Virus record (IMG/VR): IMGVR_UViG_3300037102_000029
Location: 3,855-67,854 of that record
Source: a virus
DNA: 64,000 nucleotides
Direction: 5' to 3' (one strand)
Each line of letters opens with the position of its first letter. Within the stretch, counting starts at the first letter, position 1. The notes below the pieces were generated by a model, which was not told where the DNA came from, searched no databases, and saw nothing but the letters and a program-made list of their open reading frames with translations. Both the position numbers and the translations under genes were made by a program. Below, one piece after another: positions 814 through 45,239 of the stretch.

Positions 814-821
814 GGTAAAGT

Positions 822-1789: not shown

Positions 1790-1790
1790 A

Positions 1791-5567: not shown

Positions 5568-5571
5568 GAAC

Positions 5572-11496: not shown

Positions 11497-11503
11497 GAGA
11501 GTT

Positions 11504-13012: not shown

Positions 13013-13023
13013 GGTAATTGAAA

Positions 13024-13542: not shown

Positions 13543-13557
13543 CAGGAGAAAACACAA

Positions 13558-15126: not shown

Positions 15127-15437
15127 ACGATGGTTTAGGAGGCGTTATAAAATCCCTCGCGGTGTTTATGTTCATAAAAAGGGTATTCGCCATCCTCACG
15201 CAGGCAGTCACGCAGCTAGACCCGGTGCTCGAGGAGTACGACCGAAGGCGCACCACCCCCATAAAAGTTATGTACATCGCCGTGGATATCATATTAAACG
15301 AATTGCGCCATATAGAACCGGAATTAAGCATAAAGCTTACGTCCACAAGCGCGGATATAAGATCAAAAGGGTCATGCCGTATAGACGCGGATATCACTTA
15401 AAACATAAGAGAATTGGCAGGTAAAGGAGGTGAAAAA

Positions 15438-15677
15438 ATGACCGAAGATAAACTAGAACAGGAACAAGAACACGAAGAAGCTCGAATAAAGGCAGAAGGT
15501 TTGATTGAATCTGCTGCAGCGTCGGCGCGAGACTTAATAGATGATGCAGCTACTCGCGCCATGCTGCTTATTGCGGAAGCAGTCGAGAGAGCGAAAGAGC
15601 TGCTTCATGAGGCGGCCGTAGCTGAAGCTGAACGCTTAAAGCTAGAGAGATCACGAGATGACCCCAACAAAAAGTGA
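15438..15677 (+). CDS. Small coiled-coil protein with 11-aa Ala repeats (DivIVA-like periodicity)
   Basis: AEGLIESAAAS/ARDLIDDAATR/AMLLIAEAVER/AKELLHEAAVA; strong SD AAGGAGGTGA before ATG 15438. Confidence 0.6.
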   Translation: MTEDKLEQEQEHEEARIKAEGLIESAAASARDLIDDAATRAMLLIAEAVERAKELLHEAAVAEAERLKLERSRDDPNKK

Positions 15678-16167
15678 AACGACGGCAGCCGAGGAACTGC
15701 TTGCTGCGGCCAAAGTAGCTAAAGAAGAGATGATTTCAGCTGCCGAGACTGCGCGAGAGAAGGTTAAGAACGCTTGCGATCAAGCGCTATATGACCTCGA
15801 CCGGGCGGGTCCTACTGACCGGCGACAGCTGAACGGCAGTTATCGGTGGGACCGTTCAGAGGGCATTGAAATGCGCACTGGTAAACTGGAAGTTGGCCAA
15901 GCTAAAAGGGGAGAGCAGATCATCGGATTGATCGATGACGTTGCCACTTTAAAAGACGTAATGACTGAGCAGAGCAACCGAATGACAACGCTGCGAGAAC
16001 TCATCCTCGAAGTAAAAGACGCATGCACCGTTCGGATTGACGCACTTAAAGACGATACACGAAAGGACAAGATAAGGAACCAGCAATATGTTATCGGACT
16101 CGTGGTTTCATTCGTTGTCACGGTCGCATTATCTATCCTGTTCGGGTATGCACATTTCGTTAGATAG
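15658..16167 (+). CDS. Coiled-coil protein with C-terminal transmembrane helix (XhlA/holin-like)
   Basis: Coiled coil followed by YVIGLVVSFVVTVALSILFGY; lysis-module position. Confidence 0.55.
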   Translation: MTPTKSETTAAEELLAAAKVAKEEMISAAETAREKVKNACDQALYDLDRAGPTDRRQLNGSYRWDRSEGIEMRTGKLEVGQAKRGEQIIGLIDDVATLKDVMTEQSNRMTTLRELILEVKDACTVRIDALKDDTRKDKIRNQQYVIGLVVSFVVTVALSILFGYAHFVR

Positions 16168-16175
16168 GGGAACCA

Positions 16176-16610
16176 ATGGCACTTTATAAACATAAACTGC
16201 ATCCGCACAAACCCGTTAACTCAAATGACCGTTTCACAAGCGAGCAGATAGGCTTTAACGCGAAATTGGCTGTTTGGCTTACGCAGCACGTAGGTTCTAT
16301 GTGGACGGCCTACCTGTTCACGGTAATTTGTTTTATCGGTTTAGGTGCGATACTTGGATGGCTCCCGAACACGTTGTATTGGATCATAATGTGGCTCACA
16401 TCTTCGTTCCTTTCGCTTACCATCCTGCCGATCATCATGGTCGGTCAAAACATCCTCGGCCGAAAGTCAGAGATGCAGGCAGACGAACAGTTCAAGACCA
16501 CGCAGAAGACCTACCATGACATAGAAGAGACTGGCAAGCACTTGTCCGCGCAGGATGATGAGCTGTTAAAGCAGACGAAACTGTTACTCGAGTTGTGCAA
16601 ACATGACTGA
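16176..16610 (+). CDS. DUF1003-like membrane protein
   Basis: VGSMWTAYLF...FLSLTILPIIMVGQN matches the DUF1003 signature; two TM helices. Confidence 0.7.
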   Translation: MALYKHKLHPHKPVNSNDRFTSEQIGFNAKLAVWLTQHVGSMWTAYLFTVICFIGLGAILGWLPNTLYWIIMWLTSSFLSLTILPIIMVGQNILGRKSEMQADEQFKTTQKTYHDIEETGKHLSAQDDELLKQTKLLLELCKHD

Positions 16611-17100
16611 CACTCGCTATTTAGGCGCGATGACGATGGGTGTTAATGACTCCCTCGTTGAGGTTACTGCAGCGATAGCAGGCTTAACTATTGCCCTGCA
16701 AAACGCTAGACTTGTAGCCTTAGCAGCACTCATTACAGGCCTAGCTGGATCGTTGAGCATGGCGGCAAGCGAATACCTCGAAAAAGAGACTGAAGAAGTC
16801 TTCGATAAAAACGTTAAAAGTCCTGCAGGCGCATCCATACGAACCGGCCTCCTGTATTTCGGGATCGCGATGGCCCTTATTATTCCCTTTTTATTGCTGC
16901 AGAGCTACGTAGCGGCACTCACCTGCACACTAGCTATTGCGTTTACCATCGTCGTCGGATTCACAATATATATCACGAAGCCTGAAGATAGGTATTTTTG
17001 GAAAGAGTTTCCGAAGCGAATCACATTATCATTTGGGATTGCCGCAATAGCATTTTTGCTTGCATACGGACTGCGGCTAGTCTTAGGAGTTTCAATGTGA
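16603..17100 (+). CDS. VIT1/CCC1-family metal (Fe/Mn) transporter
   Basis: GVNDSLVE...AG...GLAGSLSMAASEYL signature; about five TM helices. Confidence 0.85.
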   Translation: MTDTRYLGAMTMGVNDSLVEVTAAIAGLTIALQNARLVALAALITGLAGSLSMAASEYLEKETEEVFDKNVKSPAGASIRTGLLYFGIAMALIIPFLLLQSYVAALTCTLAIAFTIVVGFTIYITKPEDRYFWKEFPKRITLSFGIAAIAFLLAYGLRLVLGVSM

Positions 17101-17101
17101 G

Positions 17102-17121
17102 ATTTAAATGGAGGTGATAAA
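17102..17121 (+). promoter_or_regulatory. 20-bp translation-initiation cassette, copy 1 (SD GGAGGTGAT)
   Basis: ATTTAAATGGAGGTGATAAA is identical at 17102-17121 and 17334-17353, each 1 nt before an ATG. Confidence 0.8.
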
Positions 17122-17122
17122 G

Positions 17123-17311
17123 ATGGTTAGTGAAGAAGCCTTTCGCGTAGCCTGCAAGACCGCTGGCGCGACACAAGTCTCGGAAGCAGCTGCTAAAGCT
17201 GCGATCGAGGTGTTAATCAACAAGCAGGTTGCACTCGCCCAGGCTGCAGTTGCAGCAATGCAAGCCGCAGGACGCACGCGGGTAGAACCTGAAGATGTAC
17301 CTACAGCTTAG
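17123..17311 (+). CDS. Archaeal-type histone-fold protein 1 (62 aa, truncated alpha3)
   Basis: KTAGATQVSEAA...AAGRTRVEPEDV aligns with HMf-type KDAGAERVSDDA...HAGRKTIKAEDI; perfect SD. Confidence 0.8.
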   Translation: MVSEEAFRVACKTAGATQVSEAAAKAAIEVLINKQVALAQAAVAAMQAAGRTRVEPEDVPTA

Positions 17312-17333
17312 AGGGGTAACGCCCTTCTTTTTT
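17312..17333 (+). terminator. Short hairpin plus T-tract after histone 1
   Basis: AGGG-GTAACG-CCCT followed by TCTTTTTT. Confidence 0.45.
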
Positions 17334-17354
17334 ATTTAAATGGAGGTGATAAAA

Positions 17355-17573
17355 ATGGCAACCAAGACACAGATCGTATTTGATCCAGCTACAGGAATGG
17401 GCTGGCTTCCAGCGATAGTCGTAGTTCTGACATTCTTAGTGTTTACAGTCAATTCAGTAGGTCAATATTTCGTCTTAACAACGGTGCAAGCTGCGTTCGT
17501 TGGCTTTATAGCAACAGTATTGGCAGGACTCGTAACGCTCTTCACGACGATGGAAGTGCCAGTAGTAGACTAA
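17355..17573 (+). CDS. Two-TM small membrane protein (holin candidate)
   Basis: Two hydrophobic helices; last clear gene of the late operon; SD cassette copy 2 upstream; A/T tracts at 17574-17600 resemble a terminator. Confidence 0.55.
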   Translation: MATKTQIVFDPATGMGWLPAIVVVLTFLVFTVNSVGQYFVLTTVQAAFVGFIATVLAGLVTLFTTMEVPVVD

Positions 17574-17601
17574 AAAATAGTCTACTTTTTTATTTTTTTA
17601 G

Positions 17602-18452: not shown

Positions 18453-19595
18453 CTACTTGGTTATTTCACTGCATACGCAGATCGGTAACGCTGAACTAAC
18501 TGATGCCGCGTAACTAGCATTGCCTGCAAACGAAGCATAGTAGGTGCGAATCCCTGGCGACGTGAAGGACGTTTGGTACGTCAGCGTTGAATACGCTGCT
18601 TTGTCCTGATACGTTGCACCTCCAAGAGTGTGGTAAATCTTTATAGGCTCCGCAATAGGCGCAGCAGTCCCACTTTTTAATGTGGCAATAAACGTCGCCG
18701 GTTTATTGACCCCGTAACACGACTTGTCAGCGGTTATGGTAATCTGGGTCGCTTTCTTAGTCGGTGTAGGTGGTGTGGGGGTGGGTGTCGGCCCAAGCTG
18801 ACTCTCCATCGCGATAGTCCAACTGTCGCTCGCGTATTGCCGGATGTACGGTCGCGGGATCAAACCGAAGCCGCCACTGAATTTGGCGTATCCTTTGCCC
18901 CATCCTGTCCCCCAAGAGTTGAGGGTGATGTAGTAGTCGGCGTCAGTAAAGCCAGTTACGCCAAACAACGCATTGCAGTGACCGCCGATTGATGCGCCGC
19001 TTGGCATATCAATGATCCCATCGCTGCCGACGTCTTCGTATTGCTGGTAGACTGGCATCCCGTAAACCACTGGAAGCTTCGTCACGCAGAGGCAGTTGTC
19101 TATGTTCGCAATCATCTGAGTTGTTGAGGTGCCGTCAAGCAAGTAGTAGCTCGTAGACTCGGCTTTCACTGCGTCGCTGACTGCTTTCGCTGGCGGTGCG
19201 GTATCGAACTGGCTTATATCATAAGCCCAATCAGTTTCAGGTGCTACGCCATCCTGAACAGTTGCGTGAATACCATCTCTGATATTACAGCCATTATCTC
19301 CAGGATAATCGCCGCCAATAATCCTCGCATCGCGATAGACCAGTAGCCTGCAGCCTAGAACTGCCTCGATTCCTGCCTTAATCTGACACGCCTCAAAGGC
19401 TGACGTGGTTCCGTGTGCTACGCACGCGCCTAGTTGTCCTTGATTCTTGACTGTGCTGACTAAATTGGTTATGTCCGTTGGCACCAACGTTTCAGGTGCC
19501 ATCAACTTCACGCGATCTTCGTATCTGTAATCTAAATGTGACGGCATCTGAGGTTTCCACCCCAGGCCGTGACCTTTCTTAGTAACGGTTATCAT
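18453..19595 (-). CDS. Papain-like (C1A) cysteine peptidase with PT linker and C-terminal Ig-like domain
   Basis: VKNQGQLGAC (oxyanion Gln, catalytic Cys), GGHC (His), NSWGTGWG (Asn). Confidence 0.92.
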   Translation of the reverse strand: MITVTKKGHGLGWKPQMPSHLDYRYEDRVKLMAPETLVPTDITNLVSTVKNQGQLGACVAHGTTSAFEACQIKAGIEAVLGCRLLVYRDARIIGGDYPGDNGCNIRDGIHATVQDGVAPETDWAYDISQFDTAPPAKAVSDAVKAESTSYYLLDGTSTTQMIANIDNCLCVTKLPVVYGMPVYQQYEDVGSDGIIDMPSGASIGGHCNALFGVTGFTDADYYITLNSWGTGWGKGYAKFSGGFGLIPRPYIRQYASDSWTIAMESQLGPTPTPTPPTPTKKATQITITADKSCYGVNKPATFIATLKSGTAAPIAEPIKIYHTLGGATYQDKAAYSTLTYQTSFTSPGIRTYYASFAGNASYAASVSSALPICVCSEITK

Positions 19596-22405: not shown

Positions 22406-23521
22406 CTACTGAATCTCCGAACAAACGCAGATCGGCAATACCGCACTTGTCGATCCCAGATAGTTCTCATCACCGGCAAACGAGGCATAGTAGTAGCGAA
22501 TCCCGGGAGACGTGAACGACACTGGCACCGTCAGCGTCGAGAATGCAGTCTTATCGTTGTACCGAACGCCGTTCAGTGTGTGGTAGAATGTCACTTCTCT
22601 CGGGATTGGCGTGTTGCCGTCCTTCAATGTTACGGTGAATGTGACGGGCTTGTTAACACCTACACATCTTTTGTCTGAAGTGACACCTATCGTCGTTGGT
22701 TTCTTTGTTACCGGGGATGGTGGTGCTGGTCCAATGCCGTTAGGGGGGTGGTTCTTCTGCAAGTTAGCGACGATTGAATCGAAGCCACAGGCCTGATTCT
22801 GCGCTCTGCTTGACGCTGTTCCACCCCAAACGTCGAACCGCGTTACTGAGCATCCCAATGCTACCAATGAGTCAATGATCGACTCGTAGCTAGGCTGCGC
22901 TCCGTTGATGCTGTTCTGAAGGATGTCGTTGTCGCCCTTGAACTTCTTGTTCGGCGCATTTGCGTAATTCGGCGCGTCTTTCGAGTAGTAGCATTTTGAA
23001 TGTTCCGCTGCATCGCGCCAAGCACCGGCTAAAACGCCGTTCGCTTTGCCTTTAGTCGCGCTGGCCCCATCGGTGATGTATCCAACCTCGGAAGGATAGT
23101 AACACTCCCAGAGATTCATCACGGTTCCAACATCGGAATAGATGTTCTGCCATAAGCCACACTGGTCGCAGTTGTAGTTGATGTAGCCGAGTCCTAGCCC
23201 CTTAATGAAGCTCGGATCACCGGCTCTGCCACCTTCTGAGCTGAGTGTCGGCCAGCCGGCCGCCTTGCAGGATTGCAGGAAGCTCGTAAAGTTGCCAATA
23301 GGCGATTGAATCTGACCGCCTGCCCAGATATCCATCTCGATATCGAGCACCGGCTTGACTCCAAGACCCTTGAGATACGCGAGCTGACTCGCGTAATTGT
23401 TACCTGCACCGCCGGTTGAAACCAACTCGACGGTATTTATGTGCCAGTCGCGTATATAGGCCGGGACTTCCCCGATGCTTCCTGCCGTTACTGAGACACT
23501 ATAGTCTAAACTGACTCCCAT
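22406..23521 (-). CDS. Putative TIM-barrel glycoside-hydrolase-like protein with C-terminal Ig-like domain (endolysin candidate)
   Basis: Alternating beta/alpha pattern with SSEGG and LWECY acidic motifs; C-terminal domain closely resembles that of the C1A peptidase. Confidence 0.5.
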   Translation of the reverse strand: MGVSLDYSVSVTAGSIGEVPAYIRDWHINTVELVSTGGAGNNYASQLAYLKGLGVKPVLDIEMDIWAGGQIQSPIGNFTSFLQSCKAAGWPTLSSEGGRAGDPSFIKGLGLGYINYNCDQCGLWQNIYSDVGTVMNLWECYYPSEVGYITDGASATKGKANGVLAGAWRDAAEHSKCYYSKDAPNYANAPNKKFKGDNDILQNSINGAQPSYESIIDSLVALGCSVTRFDVWGGTASSRAQNQACGFDSIVANLQKNHPPNGIGPAPPSPVTKKPTTIGVTSDKRCVGVNKPVTFTVTLKDGNTPIPREVTFYHTLNGVRYNDKTAFSTLTVPVSFTSPGIRYYYASFAGDENYLGSTSAVLPICVCSEIQ

Positions 23522-23525
23522 TGGA

Positions 23526-23711
23526 TCACTCTCCTATGTCGTCTGCTAGAACTGTTACTCGCCTTCCAGCGGTCATTCTGGCGACGGCTTTCGTTGCTTC
23601 GTCGTTCATTAGCGTTAGCATCCACGCCTGAAATTTCGTGAGGGCTGCTTTGCTAACCTTGTGTGCGCCTGCGTCTTTTAGCGCACTTCTAAACATAGCT
23701 TCCGATATCAT
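23526..23711 (-). CDS. Archaeal-type histone-fold protein 2 (61 aa, truncated alpha3)
   Basis: KDAGAHKVSKAA...AGRRVTVLADDI matches HMf-type KDAGAERVS...RKTIKAEDI; SD AAGGAGGTGA. Confidence 0.88.
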   Translation of the reverse strand: MISEAMFRSALKDAGAHKVSKAALTKFQAWMLTLMNDEATKAVARMTAGRRVTVLADDIGE

Positions 23712-24948: not shown

Positions 24949-25437
24949 TCACTCTACCAACGAGTGCTTCCAAGTGCGTTCTCTTACTATTAAAGAAATC
25001 GTAGAGATTGACACTTCGTATTCTTCCGCTATTTCTGTTTGAGTTGCGCCCATATCATAGAAGAACCGGATGTGGTTCACTTCTCTTTGGGTTAGCTTTG
25101 CGGTTCCGCTTTGTTCGGCGGTCGGGCCTTTGGCATTGAAGCGGCCCTTCTTGATGCAATCCTGCATGTTATCTTTTTGTGTTCCCACAAATAGATGATC
25201 CGGATTCACGCAAGCCGGCGTATCGCAGCGATGCAAAACAAACAAGCCGTTCGGAATCTCACCGTTAACTAGCTTATACATAATTCGATGCACCCGTTCC
25301 TCGTGGCCATTCCGGCTCATTTTTCCGTAGCCATGGTCATCCTTAACGCCGTTCCAAAGCCAGCAAGACCCCCTATGGCCGCTTACTTCGATCTGTGAGA
25401 AAAGTCTTGGCTCTAATGGTTGGATCGCTCCCATCAT
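24949..25437 (-). CDS. HNH (His-Me finger) homing endonuclease with C-terminal HTH
   Basis: CWLWNG...GYG...HRIMY...VLHRCDTPACVNPDHLFVGTQKDNMQD, then AKLT...QTEIAEEYEVS. Confidence 0.93.
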   Translation of the reverse strand: MMGAIQPLEPRLFSQIEVSGHRGSCWLWNGVKDDHGYGKMSRNGHEERVHRIMYKLVNGEIPNGLFVLHRCDTPACVNPDHLFVGTQKDNMQDCIKKGRFNAKGPTAEQSGTAKLTQREVNHIRFFYDMGATQTEIAEEYEVSISTISLIVRERTWKHSLVE

Positions 25438-26457: not shown

Positions 26458-27042
26458 TCATACACGGCGGCCTCCAAGTTTCAAAGTAAACTCTTCATCG
26501 GTTAAATTGCCTTTAGCCAAGTTGCACTTGGAACAAGCTAAAGCGATGTTTTCTATGTCGCTACTACCGCCTTTGGAGACGGGGATTTTGTGCTCTACGT
26601 GAAACTCTGAGTCAAAGCTTTGGTACAACAGCTCGCCACAATATGCACAGAATCCTTCTTGCTGAGCGAATAAGTCATTCAATTCGCGGATGGTGAATGA
26701 ACCGCCGTTTGCTCGTTTACGAGCTCGACGAATCTGCTCATATAAGGCTCGTTTCTGATGGTTTTCTTTGGCCCATCGCCGCACTGCTTCATGCGCTTTT
26801 TCTGGATGTTCCGTACGGTAGTGTCTTGACTTTTCCTGCAACGCCCCTTGGTGAGCCAGATAGTATTTTTGGGCTATCTGTAAAAAAAGTTCGCGATTTT
26901 CCTGATAGCGGCGCCGAGCATATTCACGCCTTTCTTGTCGATGTTCCTGATTATATTGTCGATAGTATGCCAACAAATGCTCTTGGTTTCTCAGACGCCA
27001 CTCTCGCGTATATTCATAAGCCTCTTCGCGCGTCTGGCTCAT
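26458..27042 (-). CDS. HNH endonuclease with helical basic repeats
   Basis: CAYCG...HVEHKIPVSKGGSSDIENIALACSKCNLAKG. Confidence 0.92.
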   Translation of the reverse strand: MSQTREEAYEYTREWRLRNQEHLLAYYRQYNQEHRQERREYARRRYQENRELFLQIAQKYYLAHQGALQEKSRHYRTEHPEKAHEAVRRWAKENHQKRALYEQIRRARKRANGGSFTIRELNDLFAQQEGFCAYCGELLYQSFDSEFHVEHKIPVSKGGSSDIENIALACSKCNLAKGNLTDEEFTLKLGGRRV

Positions 27043-32084: not shown

Positions 32085-32486
32085 TCATGGTTTCCACCCA
32101 TACCAATTCTCTGCCTCTTCCTGATACAAAATCCCTCTTTTAATCTGTCCGGCAATCTCTCGGTAAGCTTCGGCTTCCCATCCGCGCACTCGCATATGTG
32201 CGGGATTGACACAGTTCGGCTTTCCGCAGATCATTCTAATTTGTTTTGACGGTAAGAACTCATACTCCATGAGATAAAGCAACCGCTTAACCAAAACTAG
32301 ACGCGGTTTCCCGTCTTCCGTTTCTCCTGGGGCAAGTCGAATGAACCTGTTGGTGTTAATCGGTTCCCGCAGCATCCAGTCATTCGGTGTGTAGCATCCG
32401 ACGGTTCTACTTTTCACTTTGCGAAGAATCCCTTTCCGATGCTCAGGTGATAATGCTGTCTCGGATAGCTCAAATAGCTTAGTCAT
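32085..32486 (-). CDS. Degenerate His-Me-finger (HNH-like) protein
   Basis: ICGKPNCVNPAHM echoes HRCDTPACVNPDHL but the catalytic His is missing (RMICG). Confidence 0.5.
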   Translation of the reverse strand: MTKLFELSETALSPEHRKGILRKVKSRTVGCYTPNDWMLREPINTNRFIRLAPGETEDGKPRLVLVKRLLYLMEYEFLPSKQIRMICGKPNCVNPAHMRVRGWEAEAYREIAGQIKRGILYQEEAENWYGWKP

Positions 32487-32504
32487 CAAAGGATAGAAGG
32501 CGCG

Positions 32505-32525
32505 AGAATATTTAAAAGTATCGAA
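32505..32525 (-). promoter_or_regulatory. Archaeal TATA box for a leaderless transcript
   Basis: Minus-strand TTTAAATA at 32516-32509, 23-30 nt upstream of ATG 32486, in an AT-rich 350-bp gap; no SD. Confidence 0.6.
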
Positions 32526-35306: not shown

Positions 35307-36551
35307 TTAACATCCTCCATCCATCGGGTCTAGCGGCTCGATCCATTGGCCGCCGAGACAAAGTTGTTCGCACTCGAAGCCACTCAAATACCAGCCTTCG
35401 AGAACATCCTGCATTTCAATCCGGCAATATCCTCTCTGGAATTGCCGAAGCGCAGCGCCGCACTCTATCAACGCATATAACTGTTTGAACTGGCTTGGGG
35501 AATACCCTTTGCGATCTAACAGCACATTCATATCTGAGATCACAGCGGTTACGTCAGTCTTTGGTGCTTCAAACCGAGGCTCGGCAGAAAACAGAAGATC
35601 AAAACCGGCCCGGCATATCAGCTTACGCGGATCATCACCGAGAGATGTTTGAGACGTCAATGTGTCAGTTATGATCCTCACCCTCGCCTCGCGCCTCTCG
35701 CGATTATCTTCATCAATCGTCGAGTGGATAAACCGCCTGTTTGCTTGGTCGTCTTTGATCCCCAACACGCTCGAAACCCAAACGGCTCTCGGCCCTTTGA
35801 CGGTCAGGTTCATAGACTTCTGGCCGCTTGTAGCCTTATGCGTGTAAGAGCTAAACTCATTCAGTTCAGCAAACGCTTTCAGCGCCGTGAAGGCTTTTGA
35901 ATCGGCGATCTCAGTGATACAAATTATGCAGTTCTTGAAGTGGTCAGGGTTCATAGTCCAGCCGTTCTTAACTCCCGGCACCGGAACGCGCATCTCATAA
36001 TACAAAACCTGCGGCGTGACGGACGAATAAAGAACCACGTTCTTAACTGGCAAAATCTTAGCTACGTTCTCAATGAGATCATTCTTGCCGCTGCCTGTCT
36101 TGCCGGTCATCGCGAAGTGCAAGAGCGCTGACTTAGAACTGAAGCTCGCTCGCAATGCTCCGCGAAGCAAAAGTTGTCGCAAGTTACAATCTCCGGCGTG
36201 ATATTCACCGATGATCTTTGAACAATACTGATGGAATGAACCATTCATCAGCATACGGTAAGCCTCGGCATAGATGATCGTTCTATTTCGATCAAGTGAT
36301 GTGCCGACTAACCGTTCAACTTCGCGGATCGCATACTGTTTGCGCTGGTCAACGGTTCGCTTTTGCAGCTGCACTTTCTTGAACGGCTCAAAAGCAGCAA
36401 TCTCGCGGATCAAAGGGTCGGACATCGGTTTCATTGGTTTCGCAACCGGCTCAACTATTGGCTTAATTGGTTCGGGCTCAGGCTCATACGGCCCAAAGAC
36501 TAGCTCTTCCCAAATCTCGCCGTTAATTACTTTCTGTATCGTTTCCAACAT
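35307..36551 (-). CDS. P-loop NTPase, putative replicative helicase (MCM/primase-helicase-like AAA+)
   Basis: Walker A GKTGSGKN, Walker B-like IICITE, SVTPQVLYY, arginine-finger-like DQANRRF; SD AAGGTGA before ATG 36551. Confidence 0.7.
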   Translation of the reverse strand: MLETIQKVINGEIWEELVFGPYEPEPEPIKPIVEPVAKPMKPMSDPLIREIAAFEPFKKVQLQKRTVDQRKQYAIREVERLVGTSLDRNRTIIYAEAYRMLMNGSFHQYCSKIIGEYHAGDCNLRQLLLRGALRASFSSKSALLHFAMTGKTGSGKNDLIENVAKILPVKNVVLYSSVTPQVLYYEMRVPVPGVKNGWTMNPDHFKNCIICITEIADSKAFTALKAFAELNEFSSYTHKATSGQKSMNLTVKGPRAVWVSSVLGIKDDQANRRFIHSTIDEDNRERREARVRIITDTLTSQTSLGDDPRKLICRAGFDLLFSAEPRFEAPKTDVTAVISDMNVLLDRKGYSPSQFKQLYALIECGAALRQFQRGYCRIEMQDVLEGWYLSGFECEQLCLGGQWIEPLDPMDGGC

Positions 36552-36774
36552 TGACCTCACCTTTCATTTTCTCTTTCGCCTGATTCGTTTTGGTAGCTAT
36601 CGACGCTTGGTATTCAGCGTTTAATTCAGGGTGAACTGGGAGTCCCGGATTGTTCGCAACCACGCACCGCTCGCAATGCTTTGTGCAAAGGCAGTAATGT
36701 TCTCTGTCCTTCCAGTATCCAAGCTTGCAGTTCTTAACTTGTTCTTGGCTATACAAACTATTGCACTTTTTCAT
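36523..36774 (-). CDS. Cys-rich small protein
   Basis: CKLG...HYCLCTKHCERC; GGAGGT SD. Confidence 0.5.
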   Translation of the reverse strand: MKKCNSLYSQEQVKNCKLGYWKDREHYCLCTKHCERCVVANNPGLPVHPELNAEYQASIATKTNQAKEKMKGEVNVGNDTESN

Positions 36775-37406
36775 ACAGCAAAACCTCCATTTTAGAATTT
36801 CAAACCCGCCAGTGCTTCCAATGCCGAACCGCTGCTAATCATGTCAGAGTTACGGTCATCTTTTACCCTCGTCGCTGTCAAGTCAGCAGTCCAACCTATA
36901 TTTTCGACCGAGCCGAGTAGAATCTTCACCAGTTTTCGTCTCTCTTTGAATTGATAGAGACAAATTCCTGACAAAAGTTCTTCATTGCCTACCTCGCAAG
37001 CCGAGACGAAACAAAAATAATGCTTCAGGTCTTTACTCGGCTTACCTTTCGGTGCTTTGTAATATGTCATGCTTTGCTTCCAGATTCACAAGTCCTTCCA
37101 CCAACTTACTCAGTGACGAAGCCGAACCATATTTTCTCTGAATGTGAGTTACAAAATTCTCGGATTCGCTTTTTTGTGAAAAATTTTCCATAGGATTTTC
37201 CTCACTTTCTGGCCCATCGCATGATTATTTTTTGAATCCTGATTATTTCTCTGAGCGTTTTGTTTTCATTGTATTGTTCTTTATACGCATTTGAGAACAG
37301 TTCAGCTCTTCCGTATTCTCGCCAATATGACTCTTCTGAAACTTTCATTTTAACCTCCCTTTGGCCGCTTCGCCCTATCGGAGCCGACATACAAAGAAAG
37401 TGAGGC

Positions 37407-39431: not shown

Positions 39432-40223
39432 TTAGGCCTCCGATTTCTCAGCTTGCCAGTTTATAGTAGTCAGGCTCGCCTCAAGTGCTTCTTTGAGTGT
39501 AGACTTAGGAGCTTCTAAATGCTCGGATTCAACGCTGAAAGTCTCGCCAGCAGCTTTAGTTGCGATTAATGCTTCCATATCAGCTTTGAACGTGTCAGTG
39601 AACTTCGACATATCAAGTTCATCGACCGAACCCTGATCTATAATCATCCTTGCGAGCTTCAGTTCATCCTCGGATACTTCCGGCTCAGTCACGGCTAGCT
39701 CTTCAATATCTCTAAGTTCATCGAGATAATTCAAAGAAGTTAGCAATAGGCCTGACTTGTAAGCCTCAATCGCGCACGTATATTCTTTTTCGCGCATCGT
39801 GAACGTTCCAATAGCGATTTTACCACATTCGCGCAGCGCATTTCTCAATAGGAAAAACGCTTTGTTATCTTGCTTTTTGTCGACCCCCAAGAAATAATGC
39901 GAACCAAAATACAACGAGTCTATTTCAAACCTCGGAACAAACTCCTTAATCTTGATTGCGCTCGACTTTTCCGGTCGGATCATCTTAATCTCGTCAGGCG
40001 TAACGGTCACGATCTGACCGCCTTGCGTGACGCCTTTAACAATATCCTCTTTTGCTACTTCCTGATCGCAAACCTCGCACCATTTCTTTTGACGGATTCG
40101 ACCGCCATCGGCTGAATGATGCATGTGCATTTCAAACTTCTTTGCTTCAGTGGCTGCATACAATTTAACCGGCACACTCACCAAACCGAAGCTTATCGTA
40201 GCACTTTTTATAGCTCTCGGCAT
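39432..40223 (-). CDS. ku: Ku DNA end-binding protein (prokaryotic NHEJ Ku core)
   Basis: MPRAIKSATISFGLVSVPVKLYAAT...DGGRIRQKKWC...DIVKG...YFL...LRNAL...LKEALEASL matches prokaryotic Ku; no long basic C-terminal tail. Confidence 0.95.
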   Translation of the reverse strand: MPRAIKSATISFGLVSVPVKLYAATEAKKFEMHMHHSADGGRIRQKKWCEVCDQEVAKEDIVKGVTQGGQIVTVTPDEIKMIRPEKSSAIKIKEFVPRFEIDSLYFGSHYFLGVDKKQDNKAFFLLRNALRECGKIAIGTFTMREKEYTCAIEAYKSGLLLTSLNYLDELRDIEELAVTEPEVSEDELKLARMIIDQGSVDELDMSKFTDTFKADMEALIATKAAGETFSVESEHLEAPKSTLKEALEASLTTINWQAEKSEA

Positions 40224-41274
40224 TTTGAATCATCTCCTTTTATTCAAGCCAGCTCAAGTTTTGAACCTTGTTAAGCCGACATAAAAAAAGAGAGGATTTT
40301 TGTCCTCAATTAACCCATCAGTACATATCAATCGCCGATAATTGTTCAGCGACCGAAGTTTTCTCAGCCTCATTTTGTAAGCCTCCGGCATTTTCAGCGT
40401 CGGGGCTCGCAGCTCTTTAGCTTTCTCACATAGTATAGCTGTATCGTTCATTGTCATTTTTCAAGACTCCCAAAAGTTTACTCATCTCCATAAGTCCCAA
40501 AATAGGCCTCATACTCATCTTTTTCGTCTTCGGCGAGTCGTGCGTTGTTCGTTTCAATCTGTGCGCATAACTCCGTGTTTTCGAGGACTAAAACGTCCCT
40601 CCAAGTAGGATTTTTAAAACATTCTGAGTAACAACTCATAGTTTCTCTCCAAAAGTTCAACGTCTCCCAAGTTTTGAAACTTGAAACGGTCAAAAGACCG
40701 CATAAGAGACGATTAAAAAAGAGAGAAAAAGCCCCAGAAATGCCAATAAATGAGACTTTTTACTTTCGAGCACTGCAAGGTTCACGACGTCGGTTATTCA
40801 CTCTCATACTTGGCGACACCGACTTAAAGCCACTCTTCTTAATGCCGGTCAACTTCCTACTTGAAAGACCGCACTTTCCAAGACTTGAAAGCCGCATAAT
40901 CTATTCCTCCAAAAAGTCACAATCAATAAAATCGTTTTTCTCATACTCTTCGTACTCTTCAATTAAGCGCACAATTTCCTGTTTGTAGCTCATATTACGC
41001 ACCTACGATCAAACTTAGAATATTAACCGCGCCTTGTGGCGTAAGTCCGCTAATGCCGATATTGTGCAGCAGTGCGTAGTTAATCACATACAACAATACA
41101 ACATTCAAAAGACCACTAAACATAGTTCCATTATACATATTGATTCAACTCCGAGCCTTAAAGCATTTGAAGCTTTCAAAGGCCCATAAAAAAGTAGGGA
41201 TATACTAAAGTCAGATCATCCCAAAGATCGTATATGAACTTCCTCGATACTTGATAAGGTCGTTTCCCATATCT

Positions 41275-41575
41275 GCTAACAGTTATCGCTTATCGTGTTA
41301 GCACATCAAGCAAGTCTATTTCCTACGTGCTCTCTAGCAGCCATTGCCCCATTGCTCCCCTCGCGCGCCTTAATTAAGGTTATCGCGCTACCCTACTCAC
41401 ATACTGATTCAATACGACTCAATGCCGCGTTTACTGGTGAGCGTTTCCGCTTTGGTTCTATTCAATGGCCCCTAAACTTCAGAGTCGAGCTTTCAACTCG
41501 CACCCATAGATTCGACCAGATCAGATTCGCTTCTGGTATTGGTATCGTCCGAGTGTTTGACTCTTGCATTAACAT
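41275..41575 (-). ncRNA. Candidate structured leader/ncRNA A
   Basis: Follows minus-strand TATA TTTATATA at about 41603-41596. Stems: AGCG-GAAA-CGCT, CGAGT-TGAAA-GCTCG, ACCAGA/TCTGGT, GCGCG..CCTT-AATT-AAGG-CGCGC, TGCTAACA/TGTTAGCA. Confidence 0.45.
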
Positions 41576-41589
41576 ACCATACTATGATT

Positions 41590-41610
41590 TGATACTATAT
41601 AAAGCTAGTA
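41590..41610 (-). promoter_or_regulatory. TATA box heading the minus-strand early region
   Basis: GCTTTATATAGTAT on the minus strand; similar GCTTTATAGTAT at about 27690-27679. Confidence 0.55.
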
Positions 41611-41919
41611 TATATGACGTGATTGATAGATCGATCAGAGCAAGCAACGAGCATTGAATGATGATAACTGATATAATCCTAAGTTGTAGATAGAAGCCAT
41701 ATTTACCCTTTTTGGCAAATCAAAACGTCAACTCCCCGTACGATTTCTATTTCGGCATTTAAAGACCGTCCTGCCAATCTCTCATATCGTGACTCTTATC
41801 ATCTTAGAGTTATATCGTAAATTGTGTCGTATTGTAGAATCAAATCTAAACTTACGAGTGATGAACTTGCATTGATTAGCACAAAAAGGTTAATATGAAG
41901 CAAGCCTATATAAAGAACA

Positions 41920-42291
41920 ATGACTAAGCGCGAGCCTTTCGATCTTCAACGAGTGAATCTATGTAAGAACTGCGGCATCAACGAAAGAGAAGAACCTTAT
42001 GGTTGGTGTTCTTCTTGTTTAGACCAACCAAGAAAACCATTTGACAACGAGCAACCAAAGCGCAAGATAAAGAGTGATAGGGCCAAATCTCGACAAGTGT
42101 GGAGAATTGCCAACAACAAAACAATCCCTAAAGGTTGGCATATTCACCATATAGATGGCAATGCAATGAATAACGAACCATCTAATCTAGTATGCATCAC
42201 TCTAGAGAACCACATCAAGATACATCAAGATAAAGGAGATACTGCCGCAGTCATCCTATTAAAGAAGAATAACACAACCCGACTAGACTAA
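41920..42291 (+). CDS. HNH endonuclease (HNH_3-like) with N-terminal Zn finger
   Basis: CKNC...CSSC, then IPKGWHIHHIDGNAMNNEPSNLVCITLENHIKIH; BRE/TATA AAAAAGGTTAATAT about 25-35 nt upstream. Confidence 0.88.
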   Translation: MTKREPFDLQRVNLCKNCGINEREEPYGWCSSCLDQPRKPFDNEQPKRKIKSDRAKSRQVWRIANNKTIPKGWHIHHIDGNAMNNEPSNLVCITLENHIKIHQDKGDTAAVILLKKNNTTRLD

Positions 42292-42341
42292 TGGTGTTCT
42301 TGCCTACTTGTACAATACATTAACACAAGCCGACTAGACTA
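42270..42341. repeat. 21-bp direct repeat pair with 30-nt spacer
   Basis: TAACACAACCCGACTAGACTA (42270-42290) and TAACACAAGCCGACTAGACTA (42321-42341). Confidence 0.85.
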
Positions 42342-42344
42342 TAT

Positions 42345-42590
42345 AAATAGATATGAACTGATTCACTATTTGCGAAGCAGTTAATCCAATGAGAATAGAT
42401 CGAGCCTTCACGATGGCTCACTAGCTACTGGTCGCTAGGTAGTCATTTTTACTGAACCTACCTAGACTTTGCGAAGCAGTCAAAGGTGAGCCTTCGCAAA
42501 ATGCCGCCAGCCATTCCGAGAATCAACAAAAGTCTGGAATTATGGGCAACTCGAAAATTTCTATAGGAGTGGGAATAGATGTGCTCCAAT
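42345..42590 (-). ncRNA. Candidate structured ncRNA B
   Basis: Minus-strand TATA TTTATATA at about 42621-42614. Stems: TTTGCGAAG/CTTCGCAAA, CTAGGTAG/CTACCTAG. Duplicated TTTGCGAAGCAGT...GAGCCTTC motif. No ORF in the track. Confidence 0.5.
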
Positions 42591-42804
42591 CTCTTTTTCC
42601 ACCAATCTCCTAATATATAAAGATACCTACGGCTAAAGCTATTTTTGAACCTTAATTACCAAAAGAGGGCCGTCAGTTAGATAGTCCAGATTTTTTTCGA
42701 GGCTTTTTTCCCCGATTCTGGTTCCAATCATTCATCAAAGACGTCTGGATTAATCTAGCCCTGTTGATCTTTTTTGAAAATGAAACTGAAAACATAACCA
42801 TCAG

Positions 42805-42940
42805 AAGGAAGGAAGAGCCGAACACAAGAAAAGGTGAGGCCAGCGTGTTCGGCTCTCTTAGGATTGCCCTCCTCAACAAAGCGCAATCCTTAGGTGTGGT
42901 CTTCCGCTAGTTGCGAGTGCTGCTGAAGCACGTAACGCAT
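42805..42940 (-). ncRNA. Candidate small RNA C with three tandem hairpins
   Basis: Minus-strand BRE/TATA AAAAAGTATTAAATA at 42966-42952; 12-bp perfect stem AGAGCCGAACAC/GTGTTCGGCTCT and 8-bp stem AGGATTGC/GCAATCCT; ends in a pyrimidine tract. Confidence 0.55.
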
Positions 42941-43097
42941 TCTTGTCTAGGTATTTAATACTTTTTAAAATTAGTGCCACACCGTTCATCTACGAGCCTC
43001 AAGGAACGCATCACGGTTGGTTGCGACGAAAACATTTGCCACCATGGGACTTCTAATGCCCTCGTCGCTGATAGTAAATCAACGCTCAGATTCTTAT

Positions 43098-43112
43098 AGG
43101 TTTTTATACAAC
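43098..43112 (+). promoter_or_regulatory. TATA box of the late (packaging/head) operon
   Basis: TTTTTATA at 43101-43108, about 28-35 nt upstream of SD-less ATG 43136. Confidence 0.55.
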
Positions 43113-43135
43113 TCCGGTGCCTACGTCAAGTGTAG

Positions 43136-43630
43136 ATGACAGAAGAGTCTAAAGAGCTTAATGATCCTTGGGATCGTCGAGATGACGAACCTACGAAGGC
43201 GTATGAATTATTTTGTTTTTTCCGTGATTATGGCCCCACAAGGACCTATACGGCTGTCCAGAAGAAATACTCAGGAGTCGAGTTTGACCTTCAACCCTCC
43301 ACATTAAGATCATACGGCAAGAAACACGATTGGATTCGCCGGGCGGAAGCGTATGACGATCATATAATGAAGATGGAGCAGGTCCAAAACGAGAAACTAA
43401 TCAAGAAATACAAGGCGAAGGCAATCAAGCGAGCTCAGAAACAGTTGGATAAATATTCGGATATGATGGATAATGAAGATGAACTGAATCTAAGCGCTCG
43501 AGAGAAGCGTGAGAGATACAAGATGGCGCAGGATACGTTTAATGATATCTTCCAACTCAAGAAGGAGAACAAAACCGAAGTCACTGGAAGCGTGACGATT
43601 GTGTTCGGGGATGAGGTTAAGGATGTTTAA
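43136..43630 (+). CDS. Terminase small subunit (putative)
   Basis: PWDRRDDEPTKAYELF..FRDYGPTRT...W..RAEAYD motif and C-terminal KTEVTGSVTIVF strand; first late gene. Confidence 0.7.
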   Translation: MTEESKELNDPWDRRDDEPTKAYELFCFFRDYGPTRTYTAVQKKYSGVEFDLQPSTLRSYGKKHDWIRRAEAYDDHIMKMEQVQNEKLIKKYKAKAIKRAQKQLDKYSDMMDNEDELNLSAREKRERYKMAQDTFNDIFQLKKENKTEVTGSVTIVFGDEVKDV

Positions 43631-43859
43631 AAAGATCGAGGTAAAGGGAAACGTCATTGATTATGTTCAGGAAGGAAATCGATGGGTCCAGCATTGGCCT
43701 GCGAACCGCCTTGACGAGATCACTTTAAGTTATGATATGGTTCTCGATCATGTCTGAAACCGATGTAGATCACGGTGATCCACCAACGGACGACGATGAC
43801 CGGTGGGCAACGATATTCCGGTATTGGATGCACCACACGGAAGAAGAGGTTAAGGACGT

Positions 43860-44066
43860 ATGAGCCCTCCGAAAGGCGAGACTCCGGCGTCAACGTATTA
43901 CAAGAAATGGGTTGCAGATAGAAAGAAGATTTTCGTTTCAAGTGAAGATCACAATTGGATGATGAAACGGGCTGGAATGTTGCAGGCCGTGGATGGTAAA
44001 AGTAAGTCTATGGAAGACGTTGTAGCGTGGATGGTGCAATACATTCAGAGGCGTGAAGATGTTTGA
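43860..44066 (+). CDS. Ribbon-helix-helix-like protein
   Basis: RKKIFVSSEDHNWM...KSMEDVVAWMV pattern. Confidence 0.5.
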   Translation: MSPPKGETPASTYYKKWVADRKKIFVSSEDHNWMMKRAGMLQAVDGKSKSMEDVVAWMVQYIQRREDV

Positions 44067-44246
44067 ATCTGACTTGGAAGCACTTAGAGACGATTTGGTG
44101 GAAGCATTAGACCCGTTATTTCGCTCGATAGAAGTTGTAGAAAGAGCAATAGGTGAACTAAAATGGAAGTATCGTATCTTAATGTAGTGGTGACAATCAT
44201 TTTGATTGTTGAGATATTGATCTGGTTAGGGATCAGGTGAAAACAA

Positions 44247-44357
44247 ATGGCAAAGAAAGCAGCTAAGGTTCCGGCGAAGCCTGCAAAGGCAAATAGCAAA
44301 GCAAACTTCGGTGCGCGGATGGCCGCAGCGCGAGCGGCTAAGAAAAAGGGGAAGTGA
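44247..44357 (+). CDS. 36-aa Lys/Ala-rich basic peptide (histone H1-like composition)
   Basis: MAKKAAKVPAKPAKANSKANFGARMAAARAAKKKGK; 12 K/R, no D/E; SD AGGTGA. Confidence 0.7.
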   Translation: MAKKAAKVPAKPAKANSKANFGARMAAARAAKKKGK

Positions 44358-44364
44358 ATTAACG

Positions 44365-44823
44365 ATGGCACGTGGAAAAGTAACGGTTGGAAAGAAGCAG
44401 ACTGTTAGACAAGGCAATGCAGCGGTTCCTGGTTATTCAGCAGCAGTCGCATCGGGATCAGCTGCGTCGGACGCCGGTTTCCAGAAACCCGTTAGCGCCA
44501 GTCCGGCAGCGGTCGCAACGGGTGCGAATGTAAGCAGCGCACCAATCGTCGGAGCTGCAGGCGCAGGAACGCCGTCAATGAAAACCGGCACGCGCACAAA
44601 GCCAGTGCAAGGACCTGTGCCAAACATCGGCGCGAGGACTAAGGTCAAAGGCGGTAAGGTTCCGAACACCGGAAGCATCAATCGTCCGAAACAAGGCCCA
44701 GGGCCAAACGTAGGAACTCGAAACCCCGCGAGAGCCGTTGGGACGCCGCCAAACGTAGGAACGCGCACAAAGCCAGTAACGAAGACTCAGCCGAATGTAG
44801 GAACGCGGACCAGACCTAAGTAA
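44365..44823 (+). CDS. Highly basic disordered protein with PN(V/I/T)G(T/A/S)R-type repeats
   Basis: Starts MARGKVTVGKKQTVRQG; one acidic residue in 152 aa; five PNxGxx repeats. Confidence 0.75.
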   Translation: MARGKVTVGKKQTVRQGNAAVPGYSAAVASGSAASDAGFQKPVSASPAAVATGANVSSAPIVGAAGAGTPSMKTGTRTKPVQGPVPNIGARTKVKGGKVPNTGSINRPKQGPGPNVGTRNPARAVGTPPNVGTRTKPVTKTQPNVGTRTRPK

Positions 44824-45239
44824 TGTCATTCAAACATTCGATGGGACGCAACAACAAGGCGCGATGCAAGGACGGCAGTCACTTGGAGTATGAAATCATC
44901 AATGTAGACAAAGGCAGTAAAGACTCATATATGGCGTCCAACGAGTCGTACCACGGTGGATCAAATGATTCAGACTCCGGAACGGCTCACGTATTCTTTC
45001 GATTATCGTAAGGAACGAACCGAACCCGAACTGAAAGATGAATCTGTTCCGTTGAAACCCGTAAGTCAACCGTGGATGTAAATGTTTGAACACGAAGGCG
45101 AAGGTTGTGACCTGCGATGCCACCAAACGGCAGAACAGATTGCTCGTCGCTATATGGATAACTTACAGAATCTAATGCGTAATGCGGAAGGGATCACGTT
45201 GAAAGTCTATTACGAGGCTGCGTTCGCGCAGGAGGACAG

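Follow-up and report, generated by a model that had tools for sequence, protein, structure and literature searches.

A candidate minus-strand RNA hairpin with a Shine-Dalgarno–complementary loop upstream of the small terminase gene of an uncultured virus from peat

INTRODUCTION

Why do two hairpins located next to the packaging genes of a virus display the same nine nucleotides in their loops? Both lie in an 844-nt gap without a long open reading frame (ORF), between an HNH endonuclease gene and the small terminase gene terS. The gap occupies positions 42292 to 43135 of a 64,000-nt stretch of viral DNA (hereafter, the window) that comprises bases 3855 to 67854 of the 67,854–base pair (bp) IMG/VR record IMGVR_UViG_3300037102_000029 (CheckV completeness, 100%). 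An initial annotation read the loops on the minus strand as anti–Shine-Dalgarno (SD) sequences of viral small RNAs (sRNAs) and proposed that these RNAs silence SD-led mRNAs while sparing leaderless ones, in an early-to-late translational switch. Here, we followed up this proposal computationally. One of the two hairpins is a conserved structure, probably of minus-strand RNA, and an sRNA that pairs with SDs is our best, if tentative, reading of it.

RESULTS

Two hairpins share a loop motif

Hairpin 1 (H1) is formed by fully (100%) complementary 9-bp arms at 42468–42476 (TTTGCGAAG) and 42492–42500 (CTTCGCAAA) around the 15-nt loop CAGTCAAAGGTGAGC. Hairpin 2 (H2) has 12-bp arms, also 100% complementary, at 42814–42825 (AGAGCCGAACAC) and 42845–42856 (GTGTTCGGCTCT) and a 19-nt loop, AAGAAAAGGTGAGGCCAGC. 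The plus-strand 9-mer AAAGGTGAG is located in both loops, at 42482–42490 in H1 and 42830–42838 in H2. Direct reading and a repeat search recovered both stems, both loops, and both copies of the 9-mer just as the initial annotation had given them. On the minus strand, H1 has 11 pairs if one U-G pair is counted and exposes the loop GCUCACCUUUGACUG; the minus-strand loop of H2, GCUGGCCUCACCUUUUCUU, forms the core of a candidate sRNA that we refer to as RNA C.

The 9-mer occurs four times in the window compared to 0.49 copies expected, and none of 100 shuffled sequences reached four. The remaining two copies are sense SDs of real genes, at 36556 (minus strand) and 53524 (plus strand); they belong to a helicase-like gene and a 137-codon late gene, with 4 to 5 nt between GGTGA and the ATG. 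By our own arithmetic, the chance that a 15-nt and a 19-nt loop share a 9-mer is ~77/4^9 = 3e-4. Since the stems of H1 and H2 are unrelated, the shared motif does not stem from a recent duplication of a whole hairpin.

Each hairpin has a companion. The one beside H1, at 42435–42465 (minus strand), has an 8-bp stem (CTAGGTAG/CTACCTAG) and a 15-nt loop and was seen in folds too. The one beside H2, I3, occupies 42857–42893 (minus strand), with an 8-bp core at 42860–42867/42883–42890 and the minus-strand loop GCUUUGUUGAGGAGG. In total, the gap contains four hairpins of at least 8 bp (42435–42465, 42468–42500, 42814–42856, and 42860–42890), arranged as two adjacent pairs with 15- to 19-nt loops. 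None of 500 shuffles of the gap reached four (370 gave none, 112 gave one, 15 gave two, and 3 gave three). The excess is local: In the whole window, perfect hairpins of at least 9 bp number 4 versus a mean of 3.87 in 30 shuffles, i.e., there is no excess. The hairpins and the 9-mer shared by two of the loops are real, nonrandom features of the gap. As a separate observation, the minus-strand loop of I3 holds an SD-like GAGGAGG, next to the anti-SD–like loop of H2.

Hairpin 2 is conserved with changed stems

The hairpins were compared across four lineages. The window strain includes locus L010 (the same strain, 99.2%, differing by 1-nt indels only). G001 (loci L002, L003, and L027) encodes a TerS protein 98% identical to that of the window, while the TerS of L005 is 60% identical and that of L007/L006 is 69% identical. 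A TerS scan of IMG/VR yielded one locus and a TerL scan seven; a TerS-profile scan of metagenome contigs yielded three loci, with only L010 being close. Scanning with 17-mers returned 37 stretches, one of which was related (G001), scanning with 20-mers returned one (G001 again), and a two-block pattern was matched twice, in G001 and L005.

A stable hairpin with differing stems was found at the place homologous to H2 in all four lineages. On the minus strand, the window H2 has 14 pairs, including 2 terminal G-U pairs, and the G001 hairpin has 12, including 1 internal U-G. L005 forms a 10-bp Watson-Crick stem (AGGACAGGAA/TTCCTGTCCT), which was reached by 1 of 2000 shuffles, and L007 forms an 11-pair stem around a large structured loop. 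When the 3′ arms of the window and L005 stems were anchored on the CCTTCC tail, five pairs were identical, five carried two-sided changes, and none carried a one-sided change; this count (5 of 10) depends on the register, and alternative registers likewise gave mostly two-sided changes. The comparison was made with single-sequence folds and a tail-anchored script; a MAFFT/RNAalifold consensus, in which nonhomologous stems were misaligned, was discarded. Compensatory changes, as a conserved structure in an sRNA masking ribosome-binding sites (RBSs) would show, were seen in H2 only.

The sole internal stem substitution in G001 yields a U-G pair on the minus strand and a C-A mismatch on the plus strand; the longest Watson-Crick run of H2 in G001 is 6, a length reached by 200 of 2000 shuffles. 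The fold z-scores of the H2 segment (minus versus plus strand) were −5.14/−4.07 in the window, −3.25/−0.48 in G001, −3.39/−2.19 in L005, and −3.69/−2.31 in L007, i.e., the minus strand beats the plus strand in all four lineages. In G001, 53 of 200 shuffles folded as well as the plus strand. This strand evidence is modest, since it comes from four lineages and one diagnostic substitution only. Taken together, H2 is a real, conserved structure, probably of minus-strand RNA. The minus-strand reading adopted in the initial annotation is plausible given the TATA-like boxes located upstream (see below), the G-U pattern of H2, and the z-scores in four of four lineages.

The conservation is embedded in a variable region. 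G001 is mosaic: It is collinear with the window from 42590 rightward, with 87% identity over 42590–42856 and 100% identity over 42913–42971 and 43021–43140. At window positions 41765–42590, which include the HNH gene and H1, G001 has a shorter, patchily similar sequence, and L002 lacks a collinear counterpart. L005 is collinear with the window at 42519–42622 and 42764–42930 (63 to 64% identity; blastn E values, 4e-5 and 6e-6); the latter segment is homologous to L005 positions 1689–1857 (64% identity, E = 6e-6). Blocks common to the window and L005 are ACTGAAAAC, GA(A/G)GGAAGG, TGAGGCC, GGTCTTC, the 16-mer GAGTGCTGCTGAAGCA, and CTTATAGGTTTTTA. I3 is present only in the window lineage; it was lost in G001 via a 34-nt deletion between CTTAGG repeats (L002, ~3735), and in G001, the loss of I3 coincides with a broken H2 loop motif.

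It is very improbable that the 9-mer and the hairpins have no function and were merely left behind when gene starts decayed and this rapidly changing intergenic region recombined. The mosaic, indel-rich structure of the region in close relatives is what such decay would look like; SD-like words are enriched genome-wide, and H1 is lineage-specific. Two observations speak against it: the hairpin density that no shuffle of the gap reached, and the retention of H2 with changed stems across relatives with TerS identity of ~60%.

The loop core and a CU-rich tail are complementary to SD cores

The plus-strand loops of H2 read AAGAAAAGGTGAGGCCAGC in the window, ...AAAAGATTGTGAGGCCAAG... in G001, ...AAGAGTGTTGAGGCCGAG... 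in L005, and ...GGCCAATGAGGTGATGC... in L007. The core common to the lineages is TGAGG (CCUCA on the minus strand), with CCUCA(C/A) kept in G001 and L005. The longer CUCACCUUU is found in the window lineage only, and the L007 loop holds AUCACCUC. The window anti-SD UCACCUUU can pair, by eye, with GGAGGUGA through six Watson-Crick and two G-U pairs. The initial annotation named loop conservation with stem covariation as a check; the stem of H2 does covary, the 9-mer in its loop is changed in G001 and L005, and H1 is without a convincing homolog.

A CU-rich single-stranded tail follows H2 on its 3′ side on the minus strand (42800–42813, UCCUUCCUUCUGAU; plus-strand purine block, GAAGGAAGG). The block GA(A/G)GGAAGG is invariant or almost so in the window, G001, and L005, and in every lineage, the minus-strand hairpin has a CU-rich stretch (CUUCCUUCC, CCUUCCCUC, or CUUCCUUUC) on its 3′ side. 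In L007, this stretch is located within the 3′ arm of the stem and is not a free tail. Allowing G-U pairs, the tail is complementary to cores of the GGAGG type; the CCUCA loop core and the tail are, therefore, both complementary to SD cores.

The usual viral SD is of the GGAGGTGA type and lies 3 to 8 nt from the start codon (9 and 10 nt in two long ORFs). The target proposed in the initial annotation consists of the SD GAAAGGTGAGGTC (36553–36565) and the ATG of the helicase-like gene (together 36549–36565, minus strand). The complementarity is as described: GAAAGGTGAGGTC can pair with the H2 loop sequence GGCCUCACCUUUU over 13 positions, two of them G-U, with a duplexfold energy of −23.1 kcal/mol. 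A general affinity of the loops for SDs is plausible, if tentative.

H1 differs from H2. At the corresponding position, ~36 to 40 nt from a conserved GAATTA block, the hairpins of G001 and L005 are weak, and their loops are unrelated. On the minus strand, no U-run of at least 5 follows H1 until ~41888, which makes H1 look less like a second discrete sRNA than like a stretch of a long leftward leader, one that would be antisense to the HNH gene as well.

Putative transcription signals point leftward

Two TATA-like boxes, a candidate promoter for RNA C, lie upstream of H2 on the minus strand at 42952–42969 (ATTAAATA, 42959→42952; TTTAAAAA, 42969→42962); the block 42913–42973 is 100% identical in G001. 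The conserved 16-mer GAGTGCTGCTGAAGCA (42915–42930, minus strand), identical in the window, G001, and L005, would mark the 5′ end of the RNA. By eye, ATTAAATA lies 22 nt upstream of the 16-mer, and in L005, TATAAGTA precedes the 16-mer by 25 nt. A candidate terminator, GUUUUCAGUUUCAUUUUC with two U4 tracts, is located at 42776–42793 (minus strand) and abuts a plus-strand T6 at 42770–42775. ACTGAAAAC is kept in the window and L005, G001 has ACAGAAAAC, and GAAAAC (minus-strand GUUUUC) is common to all three. With these putative signals, RNA C would start near 42928, 22 to 27 nt downstream of a TATA-like box, run through I3 (in the window lineage only), H2, and the CU-rich tail, and end at the U4 tracts at ~42790–42777. 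The predicted RNA would be ~150 nt long in the window and ~110 nt in G001; the signals fit a length of about 110 to 160 nt.

A perfect TTTATATA box is present upstream of H1 at 42614–42621 (minus strand, 42621→42614), in a block 100% conserved in G001; it predicts a leftward start near 42591, ~90 nt upstream of H1. It belongs to a series of four boxes of one orientation, TATATAAA on the plus and TTTATATA on the minus strand, at 41596–41603, 41907–41914, 42340–42347, and 42614–42621. The whole 64-kb window has six such sites, four of them within 41596–42621. We infer that the four boxes are tandem leftward (early) promoters. H1 would then hold a lineage-specific second copy of the motif (CUCACCUUU), placed in the 5′ leader of a long transcript running leftward from the box at 42621.

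All T-runs of at least 5 in the gap are on the plus strand (T5 to T8, at 42446, 42594, 42640, 42692, 42705, 42770, 42963, and 43111), and no A5 runs were found on the plus strand of the gap; rightward transcription would therefore be repeatedly stopped and leftward transcription would not. Other scans did not indicate a strand or a known RNA. In 41100–43300, a sigma-70 promoter scan gave 6 sites versus 4.7 expected and an intrinsic-terminator scan gave 2 versus 1.6 expected, neither above chance, and composition skews across the gap were close to zero. No Rfam family matched the window at the gathering threshold; among subthreshold matches in 41100–43200, the best had an E value of 0.19, and nothing was significant at E ≤ 5. 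There are no tRNAs in the window.

On the plus strand, TATA-like TTTTTATACA (43101–43110) is located 25 to 27 nt upstream of the SD-less terS ATG at 43136; G001 and L005 both keep the block CTTATAGGTTTTTA, and L007 has a related one. TTTTTATACA is likely a late promoter and the terS mRNA likely leaderless. TATA-like boxes of the same orientation precede two SD-less ATGs by 22 to 27 nt, that of terS (43136, plus strand) and that at 32486 (minus strand), which begins a 133-aa minus-strand ORF (box and start within 32486–32516). This arrangement suggests that leaderless mRNAs coexist with many GGAGGTGA-led genes. The idea of an sRNA that silences SD-led mRNAs and spares leaderless ones is supported insofar as terS looks leaderless and most genes are GGAGGTGA-led; the 9-mer on which it was built turned out to be lineage-specific.

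The motif can also be read in the sense direction. If rightward transcripts exist, then the loop-exposed SDs might drive tiny ORFs or act as ribosome standby or decoy sites. The strand of the motif is that of the HNH and terS genes, two of the four AAAGGTGAG copies are real SDs in the sense direction, GGTGA is followed by a start codon after 11 nt in H1 and 7 nt in H2, and, by eye, a start codon lies a few nucleotides after GAGG in four of four lineages. The corresponding plus-strand ORFs have 21 codons each (ATG, 42501–42566; GTG, 42845–42910). These ORFs and a 68-codon minus-strand ORF are disrupted by indels in G001; the ORF after the H2 motif is 21 codons long in the window, but 4 in G001 and 44 in L005, its frame and stop differ, and the window has an in-frame stop where L005 continues, unlike a conserved leader peptide or upstream ORF. 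Since the ORFs are broken or changed in relatives, the region is noncoding. In addition, the 11-nt spacing is outside the 3 to 8 nt of the clear long genes, the plus strand is studded with T5 to T8 runs, and its stem in G001 contains the C-A mismatch and folds no better than many shuffles. Since terS has a TATA-like box of its own, the gap is unlikely to be the terS leader. A sense-strand function of the loops is thus quite improbable.

RNA-library contigs cover hairpin 1

Four of six listed RNA runs were examined; all consist of assembled contigs without strand. Strandless contigs over 42291–42567, including H1, were present in three of the four runs, from two studies; both contigs ending at 42567 belong to a single study. 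The HNH gene was under contigs in two runs and uncovered in X17 and X18, where 42291–42567 did have cover. No window-strain contig covered 42592–43143 in the four runs; contig gaps prove nothing, and neither of these was used as evidence. A 621-nt contig from a relative matches 42686–42708 and 42911–42930; between them, 181 different nucleotides replace the 202 nt containing H2, i.e., conserved flanks surround a variable middle.

Two contigs contain backward joints. An 89-nt contig (run X17, record 14) joins 42406–42435 to 36756–36813 (joint 42435|36756) on one strand, with a k-mer depth of 7.9 compared to 6.6 for the straight path; 36756–36813 covers the SD and initial codons of a small minus-strand ORF, rich in Cys, that is located just upstream of the helicase-like gene. 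A second 89-nt contig (run X15, record 1) joins 41967–41996 to 41714–41772 (joint 41996|41714), also on one strand. Possible sources are a 5.7-kb tandem duplication or circle, a product of RNA ligation or circularization, or template switching.

Genomic context of the gap

The gap belongs to a ~2-kb control region that separates leftward (early/replication) genes from a rightward packaging/structural block: Genes are on the minus strand from ~18000 to 41140 and on the plus strand at 1–17600 and from 43136 onward. It is flanked on the left by the HNH_3 homing-type endonuclease gene (41920–42291, plus strand; Pfam HNH_3, 5.4e-10; PHROG HNH endonuclease families) and on the right by terS (43136–43630, plus strand; phrog_6299, 1.2e-17), downstream of which Pfam/PHROG scans identified large terminase, portal, and major capsid genes. 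A Ku gene lies upstream (39432–40223, minus strand). At its 3′ end, the ORF that starts at 41920 overlaps with a ACATCAAGAT repeat of 2.1 copies. The HNH_3 gene is absent at the matching place in G001, the relative with 98% TerS identity (L002, 2900–3470); the presence/absence polymorphism of this predicted gene is typical of a homing endonuclease. Two further HNH genes are found in the window, at 24949–25437 and 26458–27042 (minus strand).

Given this neighborhood, the hairpins might act at the level of DNA: as a pac or cos site by terS, as part of a replication origin, or as operators, in the form of inverted repeats or minus-strand hairpins in single-stranded DNA. The gap immediately precedes terS, has an HNH gene at its other end, and holds sequence blocks conserved across lineages. 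In the same gap, the relatives have tandem arrays of 10- to 11-nt units, CTATCATCAT ×6.8 in L005 (1189–1254) and ATCATCTAATC ×6.8 in L007 (584–709). G-T is the least harmful mismatch in DNA hairpins, which we count in favor of a DNA element. Other features do not fit: The four inverted repeats have different arms and hence are not sites of one protein; the stems change while their pairing is kept, in G001 on one strand only; and an HNH gene of the homing type that is absent at the matching place in G001 is no fixed packaging partner. No genome end could be mapped here; both virus records are "linear" assemblies that are unbroken in the gap. Overall, we consider a DNA-level role unlikely. CTAG-rich repeats accompany the arrays of L005 and L007, and remnants only are left in the window; the arrays are iteron-like and may represent a replication origin.

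The virus is an uncultured tailed virus from peat, and its host is probably archaeal. Near-identical DNA was found in 14 metagenome runs, from peat or permafrost. Two histone-like ORFs of 61 to 62 aa with strong SDs are present, at 17123–17311 (plus strand) and 23526–23711 (minus strand); they matched the histone folds of HPhA (Protein Data Bank, E = 8.8e-4), HMfA (0.087), and HMfB (0.49), and in Pfam, nothing passed the threshold (TAF, E = 0.07). We also counted for an archaeal host the similarity of the helicase-like protein to MTBMA_p00010-type P-loop proteins, whose neighbors are mixed archaeal and bacterial, and the TATA-type boxes located 22 to 27 nt upstream of the two SD-less ATGs. Neither a peptidoglycan hydrolase nor a domain-specific replication protein was found among 48 distinct ORFs (Pfam and PHROG; 58 protein scans), and we took the lack of a hydrolase among these as a further point for an archaeal host. 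The search for a host or provirus gave none, with zero relatives in genome-contig scans, and blastn of 42000–45000 against cultured phages gave no match.

Two other parts of the window are worth describing. The gene at 18453–19595 (minus strand) encodes a papain-like protein (Peptidase_C1) that ends in a Big_3_5 domain, and the product of 22406–23521 (minus strand) shares the Ig-like domain. Because no peptidoglycan hydrolase was found, these proteins may serve the virus as lysis or host-surface enzymes on a host without murein. Where the plus- and minus-strand gene blocks converge (17564–17601), T6 and overlapping A/T palindromes come after a 9-bp hairpin rich in AT; this element looks like a bidirectional terminator.

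DISCUSSION

The gap would, in our tentative best reading, encode a structured noncoding RNA on the minus strand that pairs with SDs in trans; we hold this short of probable. Since the loop and the tail are complementary to SDs located before most viral genes, SD-occluding pairing would be the most likely mechanism. The H2 loop (GGCCUCACCUUUU, with CCUCA in all lineages) and the tail (CUUCCUUCC) would pair with purine-rich SDs (GGAGGUGA), and base pairing with translation-initiation regions (TIRs) would occlude the SD. The helicase-like gene would be the best single candidate target, and the SD-less, apparently leaderless terS would be unaffected. The interpretation given in the initial annotation is thus borne out in part; the early-to-late translational switch envisaged there is speculation, and the comparative data do not support it.

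Several observations weigh against an SD-pairing sRNA. The comparative evidence comes from four lineages, two of which are close. The exact 9-mer is lineage-specific: In G001, a 2-nt insertion interrupts it (AAAGATTGTGAGGCC), and the L005 counterpart is GTGTTGAGGCC (GTTGAGG). A strong anti-SD loop is present in two of the four lineages (window and L007) and is weak in G001 and L005. H1 has no convincing homolog and is not conserved in G001; the z-scores at its site (minus/plus strand) are −0.70/−1.33 in G001 and −2.23/−2.68 in L005, favoring the plus strand. The motif is located on the strand of the flanking genes' SDs, with start codons 7 or 11 nt downstream, so that a sense reading exists. 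The U4 tracts are weak terminators. The archaeal host, too, is not proven: The histone-fold support is weak (E = 8.8e-4 and 0.49), and the closest cultured capsid and portal relatives are bacteriophages, with ~30% identity.

The target statistics point in the same direction. Duplex energies were calculated for each loop and 200 shuffled loops against 80 crude TIRs. The best TIR for the H2 loop was that of the helicase-like gene (−23.1 kcal/mol), which was equaled by 21 of 200 shuffled loops; the median TIR affinity of the H2 loop was ordinary, with 118 of 200 shuffles being as good. In G001, the helicase SD is still AAAGGTGAGGC, inside an overlapping upstream ORF, and the loop has changed, which reduces the pairing from 13 to 8 bp. 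Since the duplex is at chance level and is not compensated in G001, the helicase-like gene is not supported as a specific target, and no pairing was found that is better than chance and covaries with its target. For the H1 loop, the best duplex (−17.8 kcal/mol, gene at 53536) was equaled by 38 of 200 shuffled loops, and the median energy was −10.15 versus −10.1 for an oligo resembling the 16S ribosomal RNA (rRNA) tail; 8 of 200 shuffles reached this median, which we count in favor of SD pairing.

A more general version of SD pairing would have a family of tailed archaeal viruses encode an RNA that mimics the 3′ tail of 16S rRNA in its loop (CUCACCUUU; AUCACCUC in L007) and CU-rich tail. Such an RNA would compete for SDs genome-wide and dampen SD-led translation, both early viral and host, with the leaderless terS escaping. 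We regard this version as distinctly unlikely.

The same structure and strand evidence would also fit a minus-strand RNA or leader with a function other than SD pairing, such as stability or processing, protein binding, or antisense to rightward read-through, the SD look being incidental. CCUCA and the CU-rich tail are the only conserved parts, with no full anti-SD, and the target statistics are at chance level, as this explanation would have it. An RNA-library contig that ends or joins exactly at 42435, the foot of a hairpin pair, hints at processing. An incidental SD look is at odds with unrelated stems sharing a loop 9-mer that is the SD of two real genes and with the independent appearance of AUCACCUC in the L007 loop. 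We therefore see a non-SD function as rather unlikely and retain SD pairing by RNA C as the working interpretation.

If the RNA is real and pairs with SDs, then it would give a virus a simple means of telling SD-led from leaderless mRNAs; if it mimics the 16S rRNA tail, then it would amount to a virus-encoded global reprogramming of the mode of translation initiation. Even without an SD function, the analysis defines a conserved structured noncoding element, together with a putative map of promoters (the four TTTATATA boxes that point leftward and a late promoter of the leaderless type), for an uncultured, abundant lineage of viruses from peat and permafrost.

The order of genes resembles that of HNH-associated cos/pac regions, where an HNH gene, a long noncoding stretch, and terS/terL are found in a row. 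The HNH gene here is, unlike in those regions, of the HNH_3 homing type and is missing at the matching place in G001, and for these reasons, the reading as an HNH-dependent cos site fails; in L005, the HNH gene lies downstream of terS. Also unlike the duplex sites of HNH-cos regions, the stem covariation and G-U asymmetry of H2 point to a single-stranded nucleic acid.

Regulatory sRNAs encoded by phages reportedly act on gene expression during infection (bioRxiv 10.1101/2024.10.31.621285, PMC13502914). The known cases are from bacteriophages and prophages and are aimed at specific host genes. No archaeal virus with a general anti-SD RNA was among the top literature matches, which is not proof of absence.

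RBS-masking sRNAs are already known from bacteria and from one methanogen. In bacteria, pyrimidine-rich motifs of the RsaA-type C-rich sRNAs of Staphylococcus aureus and of AbcR1, which has two such modules, reportedly pair with SDs of several mRNAs (PMC3961350, PMC4152367). The likeness to RNA C lies in the pyrimidine-rich loop or single-stranded module, at times two per RNA. Unlike the viral element, these RNAs are bacterial, chromosomal, and often chaperone-dependent; the host of the viral element is probably archaeal, and its conserved loop core is only 5 nt long.

In the methanogen Methanosarcina mazei, sRNA41 carries its anti-RBS motif in two stem-loops. sRNA41 and sRNA154, the closest functional analogs of the putative RNA C, are cellular and have been shown experimentally, whereas RNA C is viral and predicted, and no sequence or Rfam relationship connects them to the viral element (zero matches at the gathering threshold; none significant at E ≤ 5). 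The likeness is one of architecture and mode of action: According to a review (PMC5867862), sRNA41 and loop 2 of sRNA154 mask RBSs, and both RNAs are archaeal intergenic sRNAs that repress translation initiation through loops complementary to RBSs, as RNA C would do during infection by the virus.

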